This document shows, piece after piece, positions 50-9,673 of a stretch of 15,862 nucleotides of DNA. A model generated the notes under the pieces. The model was not told the DNA's origin and ran no database searches. It saw nothing but the letters and a program-made list of their open reading frames with translations. The DNA comes from a virus: the UHGV virus genome UHGV-0076425; one strand, given 5' to 3'. A program made the position numbers and the translations under genes. Numbering within the stretch: the stretch's first letter is position 1; every line of letters starts with the position of its first letter.

Positions 50-1363
50 TTAACTTACTGATTTTAATAAGCCTCTGGTGTCACTTTGGTGACTATGGGG
101 CATCATTGGGACATAATCTGTCAGCTTCTGATTCAGCATTGCGATCTGTTCTGCATTGCTGTCAGTCATCCATGCTCCGTATACATTGAATACCATCTGG
201 GCACTTGCATGGCCCATCTGGCTGGCAATGAAGCTTGGGTTTGCTCCGGCAGATAATGACCAGCACGCATAAGTGTGTCGTGACTGGTATGCCTTTCGAT
301 GCCTGATCCCTGCACGCTTAATGGCTGTTTCCCATGAGTCACCTACAGAATCGACTTTGTAGACAAAACCTACCTGTTCGCTTTTTCTAACCACTTGAGG
401 GTTAAACACGAAAGTACATTCATGGTTCACTGAACGTCCATATTCACGTAGTTGCACCTTGATGTTGTACTGCTTACCCAGTCTTGTCATTTCAGCCTGA
501 TTTTTCAGGACACTGATAGCGGGCTGGATAAGGTGCACAACCCTGTTTGTGCTTGCTTCAGTTTTCGGTAGAGTGAACTCACCAAGTTTCGTATAATTGC
601 GCCTGATGGTAATTGTTCCTGCCTTCAGATCGATATCTTCCCAGGCCAGGGAGACCAGTTCACCGTGACGCATTCCTGTGTACACAGCCAATGACCACAG
701 GTTTTTCGTCTGCTGATGTCGGCAAGCATCTATCAGGCGAATAAATTCGTCACGAGTTAGCGGATCTGGCTCTGCCCTGGCTCTTTTAAGAGGCTTAATT
801 CCCTGGAAGGGATTTGCTTCTAAGTAACCGTGATCTGCAGCAAACTGAAACATTCCAGCGATTGTCGTCATGTAATAATTTACAGTAACGACGCTCCGTC
901 CTTTTGCTGCTGCTTTGTTTTTCGTTGAATTCTGATACCCGGTTAGCAAATCTTTCCTGATATACAGCAATTCCTCTTTGGTTACCGATGACACCAGTCT
1001 ACTGCCTCCAATTTTCGAAACCATCGTTCTTGCAACGGATTCATAGCGATTGAATGCATTTGCAGAGATTTCCATTCGTTTCAGATCCAGCCACTTTTCT
1101 TCAAGTTCCTTCACCGTAATTTCTTTTTTACTTACCCCAAAAGCCTGAAGGTTGGGGGAGTCAGGGAACTGTGCAGCATAATCAAAGCTTCCTGTGCGGA
1201 TGGCAAAACATACTGATGTCCGCAGTTCCCCGGCGATCTTCCTGTTCTTGGCAGTGTCAGGGACACCAAGATTTTCCCTGACACGTTTACCTTTAAAATT
1301 AAACCAGATGCGTAATGTGCCGCCGTGGTTTTCGACGCCTGTTGGATATTTGACTTTATCCAT
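50..1363 (-). CDS. int: Tyrosine-type site-specific integrase (phage integrase family)
   Basis: 437 aa ORF with catalytic-domain motifs of tyrosine recombinases (TGMRHGEL...; HxxR region SRHTYACW; C-terminal Tyr region); GGAGG Shine-Dalgarno 7 nt upstream of the ATG at 1363; first gene next to the putative prophage end. Confidence 0.9.
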   Translation of the reverse strand: MDKVKYPTGVENHGGTLRIWFNFKGKRVRENLGVPDTAKNRKIAGELRTSVCFAIRTGSFDYAAQFPDSPNLQAFGVSKKEITVKELEEKWLDLKRMEISANAFNRYESVARTMVSKIGGSRLVSSVTKEELLYIRKDLLTGYQNSTKNKAAAKGRSVVTVNYYMTTIAGMFQFAADHGYLEANPFQGIKPLKRARAEPDPLTRDEFIRLIDACRHQQTKNLWSLAVYTGMRHGELVSLAWEDIDLKAGTITIRRNYTKLGEFTLPKTEASTNRVVHLIQPAISVLKNQAEMTRLGKQYNIKVQLREYGRSVNHECTFVFNPQVVRKSEQVGFVYKVDSVGDSWETAIKRAGIRHRKAYQSRHTYACWSLSAGANPSFIASQMGHASAQMVFNVYGAWMTDSNAEQIAMLNQKLTDYVPMMPHSHQSDTRGLLKSVS

Positions 1364-6321: not shown

Positions 6322-6410
6322 ACAAAACAGAGAAGAACACCTGCGGTGGCAGCCGCCCGGATGGATTGGGTTATGAGCCCGTCGTCCGGTGATGCTCTTC
6401 TCTGTTTTGT
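6322..6410 (-). promoter_or_regulatory. Long-range perfect 15-bp inverted repeat (ACAAAACAGAGAAGA ... TCTTCTCTGTTTTGT, 59-nt spacer) immediately upstream of the rdgC ribosome-binding site
   Basis: Seen in the sequence; would form a large stem-loop in the leftward transcript between the leader terminator and the first early-left gene. Confidence 0.5.
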
Positions 6411-6457
6411 AAAAAGAGCGGTACCAGCCGGAAGCAAGGGCACAAACTGGTACCGCC
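6411..6457 (-). terminator. Intrinsic terminator within the leftward leader (tL-like)
   Basis: Minus-strand RNA: GCGGUACCAG, 20-nt loop, CUGGUACCGC, then UCUUUUU; 10-bp GC-rich perfect stem with a U-tract. Confidence 0.55.
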
Positions 6458-6878
6458 AAAGCAGTGGCTGTTGTGGTGACCGGTGCTGATCTCCGGCTTG
6501 CGGTTATTTCAGACTCTCACGGGCGTTTAATTGCCCCGCCGAACAGCTCTTTTCCGCAATAGCTGCAATGTCTTTCGCGCATCAGCCTGCGCATTCACCA
6601 CAACGCTGAGAGCACTTAGCCAGTTACGGCACCACACTTTGTCGCGGTTCCATAAATGCCCTCATCGTTGCACCCTGGTCTCTTCCAAGGTGTCAAACCG
6701 AACCGCCACGCTGGTTAGGCGTCTTATCAGCATCATCATTGCCTTGCACATTCCGGCTACCTGGTTTGTTTGCTCGAGCAAGGAGTGGATTGTCCCCTTT
6801 AACGTCACCAGACCGCTAACGACGCATGTGCCATACGCCGTGTTACAACCAAATTTTGTTTTAATCTTGCCTGTGTTA

Positions 6879-6905
6879 TGTTTCTTTTAGATACATTATG
6901 TATCT
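6879..6905. promoter_or_regulatory. Left operator: 17-bp palindrome AGATACATTATGTATCT overlapping a TGTAT-N7-GTACA site
   Basis: Dyad symmetry seen in the sequence; the half-sites match the two TGTAC-N7-GTACA sites in the cro-repressor intergenic region; sits in the spacer and -10 of the leftward promoter. Confidence 0.6.
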
Positions 6906-6912
6906 CATGGGT
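6885..6912 (-). promoter_or_regulatory. pL-like leftward early promoter
   Basis: Minus strand -35 TTGACA (6912..6907), 16-nt spacer, -10 CATAAT (6890..6885); immediately downstream of the repressor terminator, as pL is placed in lambda. Confidence 0.6.
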
Positions 6913-6916
6913 ACAT

Positions 6917-6937
6917 TGTCAAGTATAAAAAAACCTG
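6917..6937 (-). terminator. Intrinsic terminator of the repressor gene
   Basis: Minus-strand RNA: CCUGC-UUCG-GCAGG followed by U7, about 25 nt after the repressor stop codon. Confidence 0.7.
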
Positions 6938-6961
6938 CCGAAGCAGGTTCATAAATATTGA

Positions 6962-7636
6962 TTAGGCCTTTATTGTGTATCTTCTTGGTTTTCCCGAGAA
7001 AATCACTGTACCAATTATAGAGCAATTACCGTTAATCTTAATGTAAGGCTCAGGCCAGTTTGGGTTTAATGCTTTGAGATAACGCTGTGTTCCATCTTCT
7101 ATCAATCGCTTGAAGGTGGTTTCGCCTGTATCGTGCATCAATGCAATAACGTCGTCACCGTGGCAGGCAGGGACTTCGGGATCAACAAAAATCATGTCTC
7201 CAGGGCGGTACTCATCAATCATTGAATCACCAATCACCCGCAAGATATAAGTCATTTCGCCACAGGGTACAGGGCAGGGATACGTTTCTGCTGTGCTCAA
7301 ATCAACCTCAGAATAGCCAACTTCTTTCCATGCTCCGGCCTGTACCCATGATATGACAGGGACTAACGTTATTTGTTTGTTAGTGATTGAAACATCAGGT
7401 TTTTTTGTGATGTTCGTTGTCTGGTGTTCTTGATCAAGCCATCCGACAGGCAGGTCGAAACATTTTTCGATGTGCCGTGCCATGCTGTCACCGATATTTT
7501 TAGTAGCGCCATCCCCCATAAACCTGCTGGTTTGGGTTGGCTCGCGATCAATCATGGTGGCAAAGGATGAATTTCCGCCAACACCATCTCTCAGTTTTCT
7601 GGCGTTAGACCGCCGGATGTCATGGATTGTTTTCAT
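6962..7636 (-). CDS. cI: CI-like prophage repressor with C-terminal S24 (LexA-type) autopeptidase domain
   Basis: 224 aa; C-terminal GDSM (Ser nucleophile) and a downstream Lys; candidate RecA-stimulated cleavage site VQAG-AW paralleling lambda CI VQAG-MF; divergent from the cro-like gene. Confidence 0.9.
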   Translation of the reverse strand: MKTIHDIRRSNARKLRDGVGGNSSFATMIDREPTQTSRFMGDGATKNIGDSMARHIEKCFDLPVGWLDQEHQTTNITKKPDVSITNKQITLVPVISWVQAGAWKEVGYSEVDLSTAETYPCPVPCGEMTYILRVIGDSMIDEYRPGDMIFVDPEVPACHGDDVIALMHDTGETTFKRLIEDGTQRYLKALNPNWPEPYIKINGNCSIIGTVIFSGKPRRYTIKA

Positions 7637-7653
7637 AACGAAATTAAAACCTT

Positions 7654-7720
7654 TGTACCGATAAGGTACAAGTATCTTGAAGGTTCATTTCAATCATGTA
7701 ATATGTACACCGGAGGTACA
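7654..7720. promoter_or_regulatory. Right operator region: two TGTAC-N7-GTACA sites (7654..7670 and 7704..7720)
   Basis: Two perfect copies of the 17-bp dyad in the 90-bp divergent intergenic region; the second overlaps the -10/start of the rightward promoter. Confidence 0.65.
7677..7704 (+). promoter_or_regulatory. pR-like rightward early promoter
   Basis: -35 TTGAAG (7677..7682), 16-nt spacer, -10 TAATAT (7699..7704); GGAGG Shine-Dalgarno follows before the cro-like ATG. Confidence 0.45.
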
Positions 7721-7726
7721 TATTGT

Positions 7727-7927
7727 ATGAAAGCGTATTGGGACTCTTTAACCAAAGAACAGCAGGGCGAGTTGGCCGGAAAAGTTGGCTCAACACCTGG
7801 CTACTTACGGCTGGTTTTCAATGGTTATAAAAAAGCCAGTTTTGTGCTGGCGAAAAAACTTGAGCAATGCACGTCAGGTGCAATTACGAAATCTGACTTA
7901 AGACCGGATATCTATCCGAAAGATTAA
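7727..7927 (+). CDS. Cro-like HTH regulator (YdaS family)
   Basis: Track ORF 7622..7927; start chosen at the ATG at 7727 because the longer ORF would cover the operators and promoter. 66 aa, first rightward gene opposite the repressor; C-terminal DLRPDI motif recalled from YdaS-type proteins. Confidence 0.65.
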   Translation: MKAYWDSLTKEQQGELAGKVGSTPGYLRLVFNGYKKASFVLAKKLEQCTSGAITKSDLRPDIYPKD

Positions 7928-7958
7928 CAGAACACCTTCAATTTTTAACCACAGAACG

Positions 7959-8528
7959 ATGAGGCTAACCGTGGGTAAGTATCACTGGAAAGTAGAAAAA
8001 CAGCCTGAGTGGTACGTGAAAGCTGTCAGAAAAACTATCGCAGCGTTGCCGGGTGGTTACGCTGAAGCAGCTGACTGGCTGGATGTAACAGAAAACGCAT
8101 TATTTAACCGCCTTCGTGCCGATGGCGATCAGATTTTCCCGCTGGGATGGGCAATGATTTTGCAACGTGCTGGTGGAACTCACTTCATTGCTGACGCTGT
8201 GGCGCAGTCTGCAAATGGCGTCTTTGTGTCTCTTCCTGACGTCGAGGATGTGGACAACGCCGATATTAACCAGCGTCTGCTGGAAGTCATTGAACAGATC
8301 GGCAGTTATTCCAGACAGATTCGTTCAGCAATCGAAGACGGTGTAGTGGAACCGCATGAGAAGACAGCAATTAACGACGAGCTGTACCTCTCAATTTCGA
8401 AGCTCCAGGAGCATGCAGCACTGGTCTACAAAATCTTCTGCGCTCCAGAAAATAGTAACGCCCGCGAGTGTGCAGCTCCGGGCGTCGTGGCGTCGATTGC
8501 TTCTGGTTGTGGAGAAACTAACGCATGA
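7959..8528 (+). CDS. CII-like regulator (YdaT family) candidate
   Basis: 189 aa ORF second in the rightward operon; family assignment from position and memory only; alternative GTG start at 7971 has a better GAGG Shine-Dalgarno. Confidence 0.45.
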   Translation: MRLTVGKYHWKVEKQPEWYVKAVRKTIAALPGGYAEAADWLDVTENALFNRLRADGDQIFPLGWAMILQRAGGTHFIADAVAQSANGVFVSLPDVEDVDNADINQRLLEVIEQIGSYSRQIRSAIEDGVVEPHEKTAINDELYLSISKLQEHAALVYKIFCAPENSNARECAAPGVVASIASGCGETNA

Positions 8529-9673
8529 ATAGTTTAACGGCAAATAACCGTTTGTCGCAACAGCTGGTGGTCAGCGTCGCTGAACACCTGTTGTTACGGC
8601 ATGAATGCAGATTACCAAATCACCTGGCTGTAAGTAACCACAGAGAACTTTACCTGACTGTGGGGGGCGAGTTGTGCAGGAACTTAACCGCTGGTTTCGT
8701 GACGGAAGAGGACTTTATGTTCATGTTATTCGTTGGGAGCCAGAAACACAGCGCGTTATCTATCTTCGCAAAGACTACCAGCATGAGTGCTTTAGTCCTT
8801 TGTGGAAATTCAGGCGTGATTTTGTTGAGTGTGAAGGACCACCAGCACATTGATTCTGCCATTCCGGGACGTTACACTGTTCAGGCACCTTATAAAGCGG
8901 GTGTCGGGATTGGCGTCCTGGAATTGCATACGGCGACAATTGGCGCGTTAGCGTCTTTTTTGTTGCTACAACTCAGCTATACCCAAATTATGGTGGGCTG
9001 GGTGGGGGCACCGAAAGGTGCGCCGGTTTCCGTATGCGCCGGTTACGCCAACCCTGCTCAGTTCACCACCAGCGAAATTGGCGTTTCCGGTGGTGGAAGT
9101 TATCCATTGCATACGGAGGCTGCCATCATGGCTACGATCCCAACCCTCACTCAACCTGAAATTGCCATCGTTGATGGTCAGGCTGTTACTTCATCCCTGG
9201 CTGTTGCCAACTTCTTCTCCAAACGTCATGACGATGTACTGAAAAAGATCCGCACGCTTGAATGTTCCGCATCATTCACTGCCCGCAATTTTTCGGTGAG
9301 TGATTACACCGATTGCACAGGCCGCAAACTACCTTGCTATCAAATAACCCGCGACGGCTTTGCGTTTCTTGCTATGGGTTTCACGGGTAAACGTGCTGCC
9401 CAGTTCAAAGAGGCATACATCAATGCCTTTAACCAGATGGAAAAACTGCTTTCAAAGCCATCCACGCTGAGCGATGCCGCAGATAACGCCAGCGTGCTTT
9501 ACTCCCACCTGTCGGTAATCCACAAGGTCTGGCTGCAGCAGCTTTATCCCATGTTGGCAAAAGCCGAATCCCCGCTGGCTGTAAGTCTGTATGACCGCAT
9601 CAACGACGCGGCGCTACTGGCCAGTCTCATAAATTTGTCGCTGAACCCTTCAGAGGTAAGGGGGCGCAAATGA
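8525..9673 (+). CDS. Rha-family phage regulatory protein; true start uncertain (alternative ATG at 9128)
   Basis: Rha-domain signature (VTSSLAVANFFSKRHDDVLKKIRTL...) lies at residues ~205-300 of the 382-aa ORF; Rha domains are normally N-terminal, so the ATG at 9128 (GGAGG 8 nt upstream) may be the real start. The upstream 600 nt are stop-free in this frame and the ATG at 8525 overlaps the preceding stop (ATGA). Confidence 0.55.
   Translation: MNSLTANNRLSQQLVVSVAEHLLLRHECRLPNHLAVSNHRELYLTVGGELCRNLTAGFVTEEDFMFMLFVGSQKHSALSIFAKTTSMSALVLCGNSGVILLSVKDHQHIDSAIPGRYTVQAPYKAGVGIGVLELHTATIGALASFLLLQLSYTQIMVGWVGAPKGAPVSVCAGYANPAQFTTSEIGVSGGGSYPLHTEAAIMATIPTLTQPEIAIVDGQAVTSSLAVANFFSKRHDDVLKKIRTLECSASFTARNFSVSDYTDCTGRKLPCYQITRDGFAFLAMGFTGKRAAQFKEAYINAFNQMEKLLSKPSTLSDAADNASVLYSHLSVIHKVWLQQLYPMLAKAESPLAVSLYDRINDAALLASLINLSLNPSEVRGRK

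Follow-up and report, generated by a model that had tools for sequence, protein, structure and literature searches.

The 17-bp dyads that lie on both sides of the cI-type repressor gene in virus genome UHGV-0076425, a stretch of 15,862 nucleotides referred to below as the window, are very probably operators of that repressor, placed at both early promoters of an e14/SfV-type immunity region. The region itself serves as the immunity region in a lambdoid prophage of the e14/SfV type and is already known rather than new: the comparison with known immunity groups that the preliminary description of this DNA had proposed matches it to the e14/SfV group, which is already on record, and about a quarter of complete E. 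coli genomes (1324/5426) carry the region. As a discovery it therefore carries little weight, being a familiar type of element in an immunity group already described, of which K-12 itself is a carrier; the practical gain is a cleaner map of five predicted operator sites with the consensus TGTAYC-N5-GRTACA, together with promoter assignments (Table 1). The two regulators, known in K-12 as CohE and CroE, control the SOS-inducible division inhibitor ymfM in that strain, and they also control the induction of Stx2c, cdtI and serotype-converting phages.

Table 1. Features of the immunity region, in window coordinates (OL1 and OL2 are names given here)
Feature	Position	Strand	Description
OL2, weaker left operator	6879..6895	.	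TGTTTC-TTTTA-GATACA
Perfect 17-bp palindrome	6889..6905	.	OL2 inner half + 3 bp + left half of OL1; contains the PL -10 hexamer
PL, leftward early promoter	6895..6922	-	-35 TTGACA (6922..6917), 16-bp spacer, -10 CATAAT (6900..6895)
OL1, stronger left operator	6899..6915	.	TGTATC-TCATG-GGTACA; one mismatch; occupies the PL spacer (16 bp)
Intrinsic terminator of the repressor gene	6923..6950	-	8 pairs, 4-nt loop, T run; directly upstream of the PL -35
cI-type repressor, 224 aa (e14 YmfK/CohE)	6962..7636	-	223/224 identical to b1145
Candidate maintenance promoter of the repressor gene (inferred)	7643..7671	-	TTGTAC (7671..7666), 17 bp, TTTAAT (7648..7643)
OR3, operator nearest the repressor gene	7654..7670	.	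perfect, TGTACC-GATAA-GGTACA; over the candidate repressor promoter
OR2, weak middle operator	7671..7687	.	AGTATC-TTGAA-GGTTCA; abuts OR3, covers the PR -35
PR, rightward early promoter	7677..7704	+	-35 TTGAAG (7677..7682), 16-bp spacer, -10 TAATAT (7699..7704)
OR1, operator nearest cro	7704..7720	.	TGTACA-CCGGA-GGTACA; spans the start site, beginning at the final base of the PR -10
Cro-like repressor, 66 aa (e14 YmfT/CroE)	7727..7927	+	65/66 identical to b1146

Predicted Operator Dyads and Their Conservation

The preliminary description had reported two perfect TGTAC-N7-GTACA dyads between the repressor and cro-like genes, and both are found exactly where it placed them, TGTACCGATAAGGTACA at 7654..7670 and TGTACACCGGAGGTACA at 7704..7720. 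To the left of the repressor gene its elements are real but misplaced: the one-mismatch copy TGTATCTCATGGGTACA lies at 6899..6915, i.e. 10 bases higher than the 6889..6905 given for it, and the perfect 17-bp palindrome AGATACATTATGTATCT (8+1+8) lies at 6889..6905 and not at 6879..6895, the latter interval being occupied by a three-mismatch copy of the dyad, TGTTTCTTTTAGATACA.

A scan of the whole window yields three dyads with at most one mismatch, as compared with 0.28 expected, and none of 200 shuffled sequences contains three or more; all three are located in two short non-coding stretches on either side of the repressor gene, and the window holds such sites solely there. Dyads with three mismatches occur at chance level (47 observed vs 46.3 expected in the window), and a palindrome of the 8+1+8 kind is not significant by itself, at least one being present in 61 of 300 shuffles. 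What supports the three-mismatch copy at 6879..6895 and the palindrome is therefore their position and conservation, not within-window statistics. OL2 and OR2, with three mismatches each, are likewise at chance level across the window, and it is therefore only their conservation that argues for them.

Conservation was assessed in 37 non-redundant loci from many genera, in which the repressor is 72-100% identical to that of the window, and in a closer set of 80 contigs with a repressor at least 99% identical (5 contigs are without one of the two regions). In prophages sharing this repressor, where the preliminary description had suggested that its reading be checked, the dyads keep fixed offsets and have variable centres in 37 of the 37 loci, the TGTAYC/GRTACA half-sites being positionally fixed while the five central bases are free to vary. 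Over 18 cross-genus sequences the information content is 1.4-2.0 bits at the half-site positions, as compared with 0-0.4 bits at the five central ones, and in the closer set variation falls in the operator centres, position 5 of the half-sites (C/T) and the DNA outside the sites. The exact sequence TTGTACC-N5-GGTACAA has 120 matches in IMG/VR viral contigs, of which 85 have a YmfK-like gene no more than 150 bp away and the remaining 35 are isolated single sites. More distant relatives of the repressor (23-39% identity) have three dyads of the TAGCG-N3-CGCTA type or two of the form TTAGC-N5-GCTAA in the same intergenic place, and in those numbered L259-L266 the spacing of the sites is even, about 24 bp as judged by eye. 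Comparison thus strongly supports the reading of the dyads as S24-repressor operators, placed at the two early promoters, which would define the immunity type of the prophage.

The same pattern of constraint bears on whether the dyads might instead act as RNA, that is, as terminator or attenuator hairpins in transcripts and not as protein-binding DNA. A terminator scan does list the minus-strand interval 7671..7653 as terminator-like, with 7 pairs and a 5-nt loop followed by AGGTTTTAAT, but the T-rich tail is not preserved in relatives, and all copies share one arm sequence, which is invariant, shows no compensatory changes and encloses a free centre. Furthermore, the sites overlap the hexamers of PL and PR, where an RNA hairpin serves no role, and a terminator 17 bp ahead of the repressor ATG would block the repressor gene itself, so that a hairpin function is highly improbable.

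Predicted Left Operators and PL

The leftward promoter is near-consensus, matching at 11 of 12 positions, with both hexamers invariant in the 18 cross-genus sequences, and the phage Ayreon record has an annotated promoter in the corresponding position. PL heads a contiguous run of minus-strand genes that reaches the integrase gene at 50..1363. The equivalent of the terminator upstream of it is annotated in the records of both SfV and Ayreon, and, judged by eye, its stem sequence differs between relatives with the pairing preserved.

OL1 has at most one mismatch in 33 of the 37 relatives, with a variable centre. OL2 is placed exactly 20 bp from it, centre to centre, and extends from the final T of the PL -10 hexamer across the transcription start, predicted near 6888 (minus strand), an arrangement that OR1 has at PR. 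As a whole site OL2 is matched with two or fewer mismatches in 27/37 relatives vs a background of 0.14%; its inner half is GGTACA in 25 of the 37, with G/A variants in the remainder, and its outer half has the form TGTT[C/T/G]C in 25 of the 37 and is missing in about a quarter.

The preliminary description had seen in this part of the DNA an unusual architecture of overlapping dyads, which turns out to be where two tandem operators, spaced by 20 bp, meet. Relatives have GGTACA-TTA-TGTAYC at the position of the palindrome, and a single G-to-A change in the inner half of OL2 makes it a perfect 17-bp palindrome; this allele is found in phage Ayreon and in many close IMG/VR contigs, and not in e14, SfV or the cross-genus relatives. 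One could instead take GGTACA-TTA-TGTAYC, here AGATACATTATGTATCT, for a separate site of another protein, e.g. Cro, that recognizes half-sites spaced by 3 bp. This would fit with the presence of the palindrome core in 18/18 cross-genus sequences and with the far better conservation of the inner GGTACA than of the outer half of OL2, which is absent from about 10 of the 37 relatives. However, six bases of the palindrome belong to the invariant PL -10 hexamer and six to OL1, and therefore only GGTAC needs explaining. At OR no palindrome with 3-bp spacing is conserved: beyond the right edge of OR1 the length of the DNA is not constant, and OR3 and OR2 adjoin with a spacing of 0 bp. The outer half itself also argues for a complete operator: independent lineages repeatedly have TGTT[C/T/G]C at precisely the N5 spacing, in some lineages (L239, L240, L246 and L258) OL2 is a better site than OL1, and TGTTTC is retained, next to a variable left flank, in all OL variants found in the 80 near-identical contigs. 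A separate site is thus improbable, and OL2 and OL1 are taken below as tandem operators.

Predicted Right Operators, PR and the Candidate Repressor Promoter

In each of the 37 non-redundant loci the outer two right-hand sites are exactly 50 bp apart. OR3 matches the dyad perfectly in 34 of these, and its distance to the repressor ATG is always 17-18 bp. OR1 includes the Shine-Dalgarno sequence of cro (GGAGG, 7712..7716); its left half is TGTAT, not TGTAC, in most phages with an identical repressor. The start of the cro gene is found in 18 of 18 aligned cross-genus relatives.

Between the two lies a conserved weak site, OR2, that is absent from the operator set of the preliminary description. 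Its left half is AGTAYC in 22 of the 37 relatives, its right half, located within the PR spacer, is GGTTCA in 29 and GGTACA in 8, and the whole site is present with three or fewer mismatches in 25 vs a background of 0.37%. In near-identical phages variation starts just past it, at 7689..7693. A middle site at the 24-bp offset known from lambda (7679..7695) was also considered and was rejected, as it has no resemblance to the dyad.

PR was read from the sequence, with a predicted start near 7711 (plus strand); its score of 8/12 is under the listing threshold of the promoter scan. Its -35 hexamer keeps TTG in 17 of 18 relatives, and its -10 has A as the second base and T as the sixth in 18/18 (TAATAT, CATAAT, TAGAAT, TATCCT).

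The assignment of a promoter to the repressor gene, likewise read from the sequence, is tentative. The transcription start is predicted at or beside the A of the ATG at 7636. Relatives keep a T-N-TAAT hexamer whose end lies 6-7 nt ahead of the repressor ATG, and they show no conserved Shine-Dalgarno sequence at a working distance from this ATG; the transcript may thus be leaderless. Position 2 of the hexamer (-11) is rarely A in relatives, and the promoter scan did not list this candidate.

Repressor and Cro-like Proteins

The repressor has 100% tblastn matches in E. coli genomes. Its C-terminal part (residues 93-212) matches the Pfam family Peptidase_S24 (PF00717) at 1.5e-26 and is 35% identical to the corresponding part of lambda cI, whose C-terminal structures match at 1.8e-9. 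The motifs VQA100-G101, GDS138M and FK176RL align with VQAG, GNSM and FKKL of lambda, in agreement with the PDB-based alignment. The N-terminal 75 residues resemble the DNA-binding domain of SPC32H Rep (5d50, E 5e-4), the N-terminal domain of a phage CI (7nkv) is matched at 0.05, and residues 1-92 are matched by the PHROG repressor families 12107 and 5736; Pfam gives no match of any kind for this domain, even at E 10, and does not recognize a helix-turn-helix in it. For the Cro-like protein there is a match to PHROG 35 (transcriptional repressor) at 3e-15 and a weak one to YdaS/HTH_3.

In K-12 e14, which shares its repressor and sites with the window, ymfJ in the left operon, ymfM in the right one and intE are switched on jointly and late in the SOS response (PMC11002266). 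This counts in favour of the repressor reading and is indirect support for self-cleavage of the repressor on DNA damage. An alternative is that the dyads are bound by host LexA, and not by the phage repressor, with LexA conferring the SOS induction of e14. ymfJ and intE do appear in published lists of SOS boxes, yet the same source reports that the late induction does not track the LexA heterology index and assigns these genes to a CI-like repressor (PMC11002266), and an earlier study placed the e14 division inhibitor outside LexA control. Moreover, CTGT-N8-ACAG with at most one mismatch is absent from 6800..7760, and the dyads co-occur with the YmfK-like gene. Control through LexA is accordingly given very little credence, and the phage repressor is retained as the predicted ligand. 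A lone perfect CTGT-N8-ACAG at 8628..8643 was rejected as a LexA box: it has poor flanks and no nearby promoter, and is therefore treated as a chance occurrence.

The literature searched contains no footprint, gel-shift or ChIP data for YmfK/CohE or CroE, and for TGTAC operators it gives unrelated systems only, e.g. YefM-YoeB. In the Mendoza-Vargas supplement on K-12 transcription starts, the ymfJ primer is the sole relevant entry. The small RNAs co293 and svsR of e14-like prophages were also looked at; they are located elsewhere and have no link to the operators.

Proposed Mechanism

In the model that best fits these placements, dimers of the cI-type repressor would bind the five dyads, possibly cooperatively and in a preferred order, and the Cro-like protein probably binds the same dyads. 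OL1 and OL2 together would cover the spacer, the -10 hexamer and the start of PL, OR1 would cover the edge of the PR -10 and the start as well as the ribosome-binding site of cro, the weak OR2 would cover the PR -35, and OR3 would cover whichever promoter serves the repressor gene. The bound repressor would thereby block RNA polymerase at PL and PR and, via OR3, limit its own synthesis, while activation from OR2 may or may not contribute. Following DNA damage, RecA-stimulated self-cleavage of the repressor, predicted from its motifs to occur at Ala100-Gly101 by means of Ser138 and Lys176, would free both operons together.

A more far-reaching version of this model, in which the switch is wired unlike that of lambda, is conceivable but unlikely. 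In it negative autoregulation would dominate, and repressor dimers would bridge OR1 and OR3, or OL and OR (755-825 bp apart), as opposed to the cooperativity of adjacent pairs and the OR2-dependent activation of lambda. This version draws on the location of the best operator over the repressor's own, possibly leaderless, promoter, on a deliberately weak operator 17 bp away, and on the strictly conserved 50-bp distance to the PR-proximal operator.

Comparison with Known Systems

The closest systems are e14 (ymfK/cohE-ymfT/croE) and SfV (cI-cro), which have the same repressor, Cro, three strong dyads, terminator, PL and PR as the window; SfIV, cdtI, 2H10, Ayreon and Stx2c phages are also alike. 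In MG1655 the dyads are located at 1202196 (one mismatch) and at 1202951 and 1203001 (both perfect), and SfV and Ayreon align base for base with the window at the operator dyads. The SfV feature table (GenBank U82619) has a "putative operator region" on the equivalent of 7653..7721, one end of which is marked by OR3. Compared with the group, the window shows only small sequence differences, such as the perfect TGTAC allele of OR1 (TGTAT in most carriers) and the G-to-A change in the inner half of OL2 that completes the palindrome. Different genes lie to the left of OL, the homology with SfV starting near 6865.

The general plan is that of lambda, with divergent repressor and cro genes separated by a multi-site operator, a further operator set at PL on the far side of the repressor gene, 17-bp dyads that overlap -35 and -10 hexamers and start sites, and a terminator after the repressor gene. 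The repressor C-terminal domain likewise has the Ala-Gly, Ser and Lys in place, and a leaderless repressor transcript, as in lambda, is possible in the window. The operators themselves differ: lambda half-sites are of the TATCACCGC type, whereas those of the window follow TGTAYC-N5-GRTACA. The even spacing of lambda (about 24 and 23 bp) is not seen in the window, where OR3 and OR2 are 17 bp and OR2 and OR1 33 bp apart. The best-matching site of the window lies over the repressor promoter, while the strongest site of lambda is at PR, and there are two left sites as compared with three in lambda, with about 0.8 kb between OL and OR vs 2.4 kb. Because of this difference in site geometry, the occupancy order and the activation model of lambda may not apply. 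The N-terminal domain of the window repressor is unrelated in sequence to that of lambda, and, unlike lambda, the window has a YdaS-type Cro and a CII like that of 186 (CP76 type).

The similarity of the N-terminal 75 residues to SPC32H Rep (PDB 5d50) suggests a related DNA-binding domain. That repressor reportedly acts as a tetramer and is inactivated by an antirepressor, as summarized in PMC9638917. Unlike SPC32H Rep, the repressor of the window carries, as judged from its motifs, a lambda-like S24 C-terminal domain of the self-cleaving type.

Identity of the Locus

On its sequence, the locus is a member of the immunity group of the E. coli K-12 prophage e14 and the Shigella phage SfV, with all testable features of that group present. 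The DNA at 6400-8100 shares 96-99% identity with phages 2H10, Ayreon, cdtI, Stx2c phages, SfV, and SfIV, and the two genes bear the RefSeq names ymfK and ymfT. The repressor matches YmfK (b1145, CohE) of MG1655 at 223/224 residues and the Cro-like protein matches YmfT (b1146, CroE) at 65/66, and MG1655 carries the same three dyads at 1202196, 1202951, and 1203001. The 876-bp region was found in 1324 of 5426 complete E. coli genomes. The GenBank record of SfV contains a "putative operator region" (26377..26445, equivalent to 7653..7721) running from one base before one right dyad to one base past the other, and that of Ayreon has promoter and terminator features at the left-hand site. The operator set is already annotated, still only as putative, and the prophage module is very common, which removes the novelty implied by the preliminary description.

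The repressor contains a Peptidase_S24 domain (1.5e-26), is 35% identical to the C-terminal part of lambda cI, and in that alignment possesses the cleavage site A100-G101 (Ala-Gly), Ser138, and Lys176. Its N-terminal 75 residues are similar to the DNA-binding domain of the SPC32H repressor (5d50, E 5e-4); Pfam called no helix-turn-helix in this part. The product of the gene following cro is a CII-like activator belonging to the CP76 family of phage 186 (Pfam 8.4e-14; PHROG 101, 1e-71). The locus brings this 186-type CII together with an S24 repressor of lambda-like type and a Cro of the YdaS type.

Dyads and Their Conservation

The preliminary description placed the two perfect TGTAC-N7-GTACA dyads, which lie between the two genes, correctly, while both of its left-hand positions, for the one-mismatch copy and the palindrome, were 10 bases too low. 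Three dyads with at most one mismatch occur in the window versus 0.28 expected, a number reached in 0/200 shuffles. At three mismatches the count is at chance level (47 vs 46.3 expected), and at least one 8+1+8 palindrome was present in 61/300 shuffles, so that the weaker features cannot be argued from the window alone. A two-mismatch dyad within the integrase gene has the form AGTAC...GGTTCA, like the weak middle operator.

Features of the immunity region and its surroundings
Feature	Position (strand)	Sequence or form	Remark
Integrase gene	50..1363 (-)
Two-mismatch dyad	413..429	AGTACATTCATGGTTCA
OL2, putative operator	6879..6895	TGTTTC-TTTTA-GATACA	exactly 20 bp left of OL1
Left palindrome	6889..6905	AGATACATTATGTATCT	perfect 8+1+8
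OL1, putative operator	6899..6915	TGTATCTCATGGGTACA	one mismatch; ≤1 mismatch in 33/37 non-redundant loci
PL, leftward early promoter	6922..6917, 6900..6895 (-)	-35 TTGACA, 16 bp, -10 CATAAT	11/12 consensus positions
Intrinsic terminator	6923..6950 (-)		conserved
Repressor gene	6962..7636 (-)	224 aa
Candidate repressor promoter	7671..7666, 7648..7643	TTGTAC, 17 bp, TTTAAT
OR3, putative operator	7654..7670	TGTACCGATAAGGTACA	perfect; perfect in 34/37 non-redundant loci; adjoins repressor gene
OR2, putative operator	7671..7687	AGTATC-TTGAA-GGTTCA	three mismatches
PR, rightward early promoter	7677..7682, 7699..7704 (+)	-35 TTGAAG, 16 bp, -10 TAATAT
OR1, putative operator	7704..7720	TGTACACCGGAGGTACA	perfect; 50 bp from OR3 in 37/37 non-redundant loci
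cro ribosome-binding site	7712..7716	GGAGG
Cro-like gene	7727..7927 (+)	66 aa
CII-like gene	7959..8528 (+)
"Ash/Rha" ORF	8525..9673	382 aa
CTGT-N8-ACAG	8628..8643	CTGTAAGTAACCACAG
isrK Hfq-binding RNA	8885..8961 (+)		58.9 bits
Terminator-like hairpin with T run	8942..8955
C4 antisense RNA, P1/P7 immI type	8986..9073 (+)		80.7 bits

Scanning one genome per species yielded 17 further loci (repressor identity 74-100%) in Escherichia, Klebsiella, Pantoea, Edwardsiella, Rahnella, Leclercia, and other genera. In all 17, two dyads precede the repressor ATG, by 68-69 bp and 18-19 bp, and a third lies some 50-80 bp beyond the stop codon; the pooled logo, TGTACC-N5-GGTACA, carries 1.4-2.0 bits at half-site positions and 0-0.4 bits at the five central ones. 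The addition of 31 viral contigs gave 37 non-redundant loci. Among 80 contigs with a repressor at least 99% identical, variation falls in the operator centres, at half-site position 5 (C/T), and outside the sites. The exact TTGTACC-N5-GGTACAA has 120 matches in IMG/VR. A YmfK-like gene lies no more than 150 bp away in 85 cases; the remaining 35 matches stand alone, with no further copy inside 1.2 kb, which chance would be expected to produce in a collection that large. The dyads are thus conserved alongside this repressor in all 37 non-redundant loci, a lack of which would have spoken against the preliminary description, and its core interpretation as operators stands.

The distant repressor relatives (23-39% identity; betaproteobacterial loci L259-L266, L023, and L022) have other dyads in the same intergenic position, which indicates that operator sequence changes with repressor subfamily while the layout persists. 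One group shows three TAGCG-N3-CGCTA-type dyads evenly spaced about 24 bp apart (by eye), and a Comamonas locus shows two TTAGC-N5-GCTAA dyads 48 bp apart; the outer-site distance (48-50 bp) is like that of the YmfK family, whereas the middle site is placed differently and the specificity is not the same.

Putative Left Operators

The OL1 dyad occupies the spacer of PL, both hexamers of which are invariant in 18 cross-genus sequences, and the terminator separates the repressor gene from this promoter. OL2 begins at the last T of the PL -10, just as the PR-proximal dyad is placed at PR. Among the 37 relatives, the inner half of OL2 reads GGTACA in 25, with G/A variants in the remainder, the outer half reads TGTT[C/T/G]C in 25, and the whole site has at most two mismatches in 27, where the background rate is 0.14%; a few lineages have a better site here than at OL1. 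TGTTTC is kept by every OL variant among the 80 near-identical contigs, with the DNA just to its left differing. Given this placement and conservation, the palindrome, within which the PL -10 hexamer sits, is the junction of the OL2 inner half, TTA, and the OL1 left half. Its perfection arises from one G-to-A change common to Ayreon and many close relatives; e14, SfV, and the cross-genus relatives lack this change. What had been described as an unusual overlapping-dyad architecture is, as read from the sequence, two tandem putative operators about two helical turns apart, ordinary for lambdoid phages.

Similarity to SfV starts at about 6865, immediately to the left of OL2, and that to e14 at about 6870 (by eye), and phages whose repressors are identical differ in the flank left of TGTTTC; the immunity module accordingly has its mosaic boundary at the outer edge of its operators.

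Putative Right Operators and Candidate Repressor Promoter

The right region is tripartite, its sites lying 17 and 33 bp apart from centre to centre. OR2, which the preliminary description overlooked, directly follows the gene-proximal dyad and overlies the PR -35. Its right half is GGTTCA in 29/37 relatives and GGTACA in 8/37, despite its position in the PR spacer, and its left half is AGTAYC in 22/37. At PR, 17/18 relatives keep the TTG of the -35, and 18/18 keep a -10 whose second base is A and whose sixth is T.

The relatives keep a T-N-TAAT hexamer whose end lies 6-7 nt ahead of the repressor ATG, and they have no conserved Shine-Dalgarno at working distance from that ATG; together these suggest a leaderless repressor transcript, as at lambda PRM. 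A is seldom found at position 2 of the hexamer, which makes the assignment of the candidate promoter weak.

Proposed Switch and SOS Induction

In the proposed mechanism, repressor dimers would bind the five dyads. On the left, bound repressor would cover the spacer, -10, and start of PL, which heads the minus-strand gene run to the integrase gene; on the right, it would cover the PR -35, the start, and the cro ribosome-binding site. As OR3 lies only 17 bp from the repressor ATG and so overlaps any repressor promoter in the gap, its occupancy would be expected to result in negative autoregulation. Induction would proceed through RecA-stimulated self-cleavage of the repressor. In K-12, the SOS response includes a joint late rise of ymfJ (left operon), ymfM (right operon), and intE (PMC11002266), and the e14 division inhibitor has been reported to lie outside LexA control (bioRxiv 10.1101/2020.11.19.390815); no LexA-box-like site was found in 6800..7760. 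It has to be noted that we infer the binding steps, occupancy order, cooperativity, middle-site activation, and the role of Cro alike, our literature search having found no footprint, gel shift, or ChIP for the e14/SfV immunity type.

Predicted RNA Elements to the Right

The isrK and C4 matches, both above the Rfam gathering score, lie inside the "Ash/Rha" ORF, and the end of the former falls at a terminator-like hairpin. These matches point to a second antirepressor-type module, under RNA control, some 1.2 kb to the right of the operators, and to a possible mis-call of the ORF. The corresponding SfV gene carries the annotation "immunity region". Upstream of both RNAs lies the sole perfect CTGT-N8-ACAG (LexA-box core) in the window, which would gain significance were the antirepressor-like module under LexA control. 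Given its poor flanks, no promoter-like site nearby, and about 0.2 such cores expected in the window, it is probably a chance occurrence.

Comparison with Lambda

The locus is like lambda in kind, a repressor-operator switch. It differs in operator sequence, in site spacing, in which site matches the consensus best, in the N-terminal domain family of the repressor, and in its YdaS-type Cro and 186-type CII. Of some interest is that the right-hand geometry of the e14/SfV switch is not that of lambda, whose OR sites are roughly evenly spaced.
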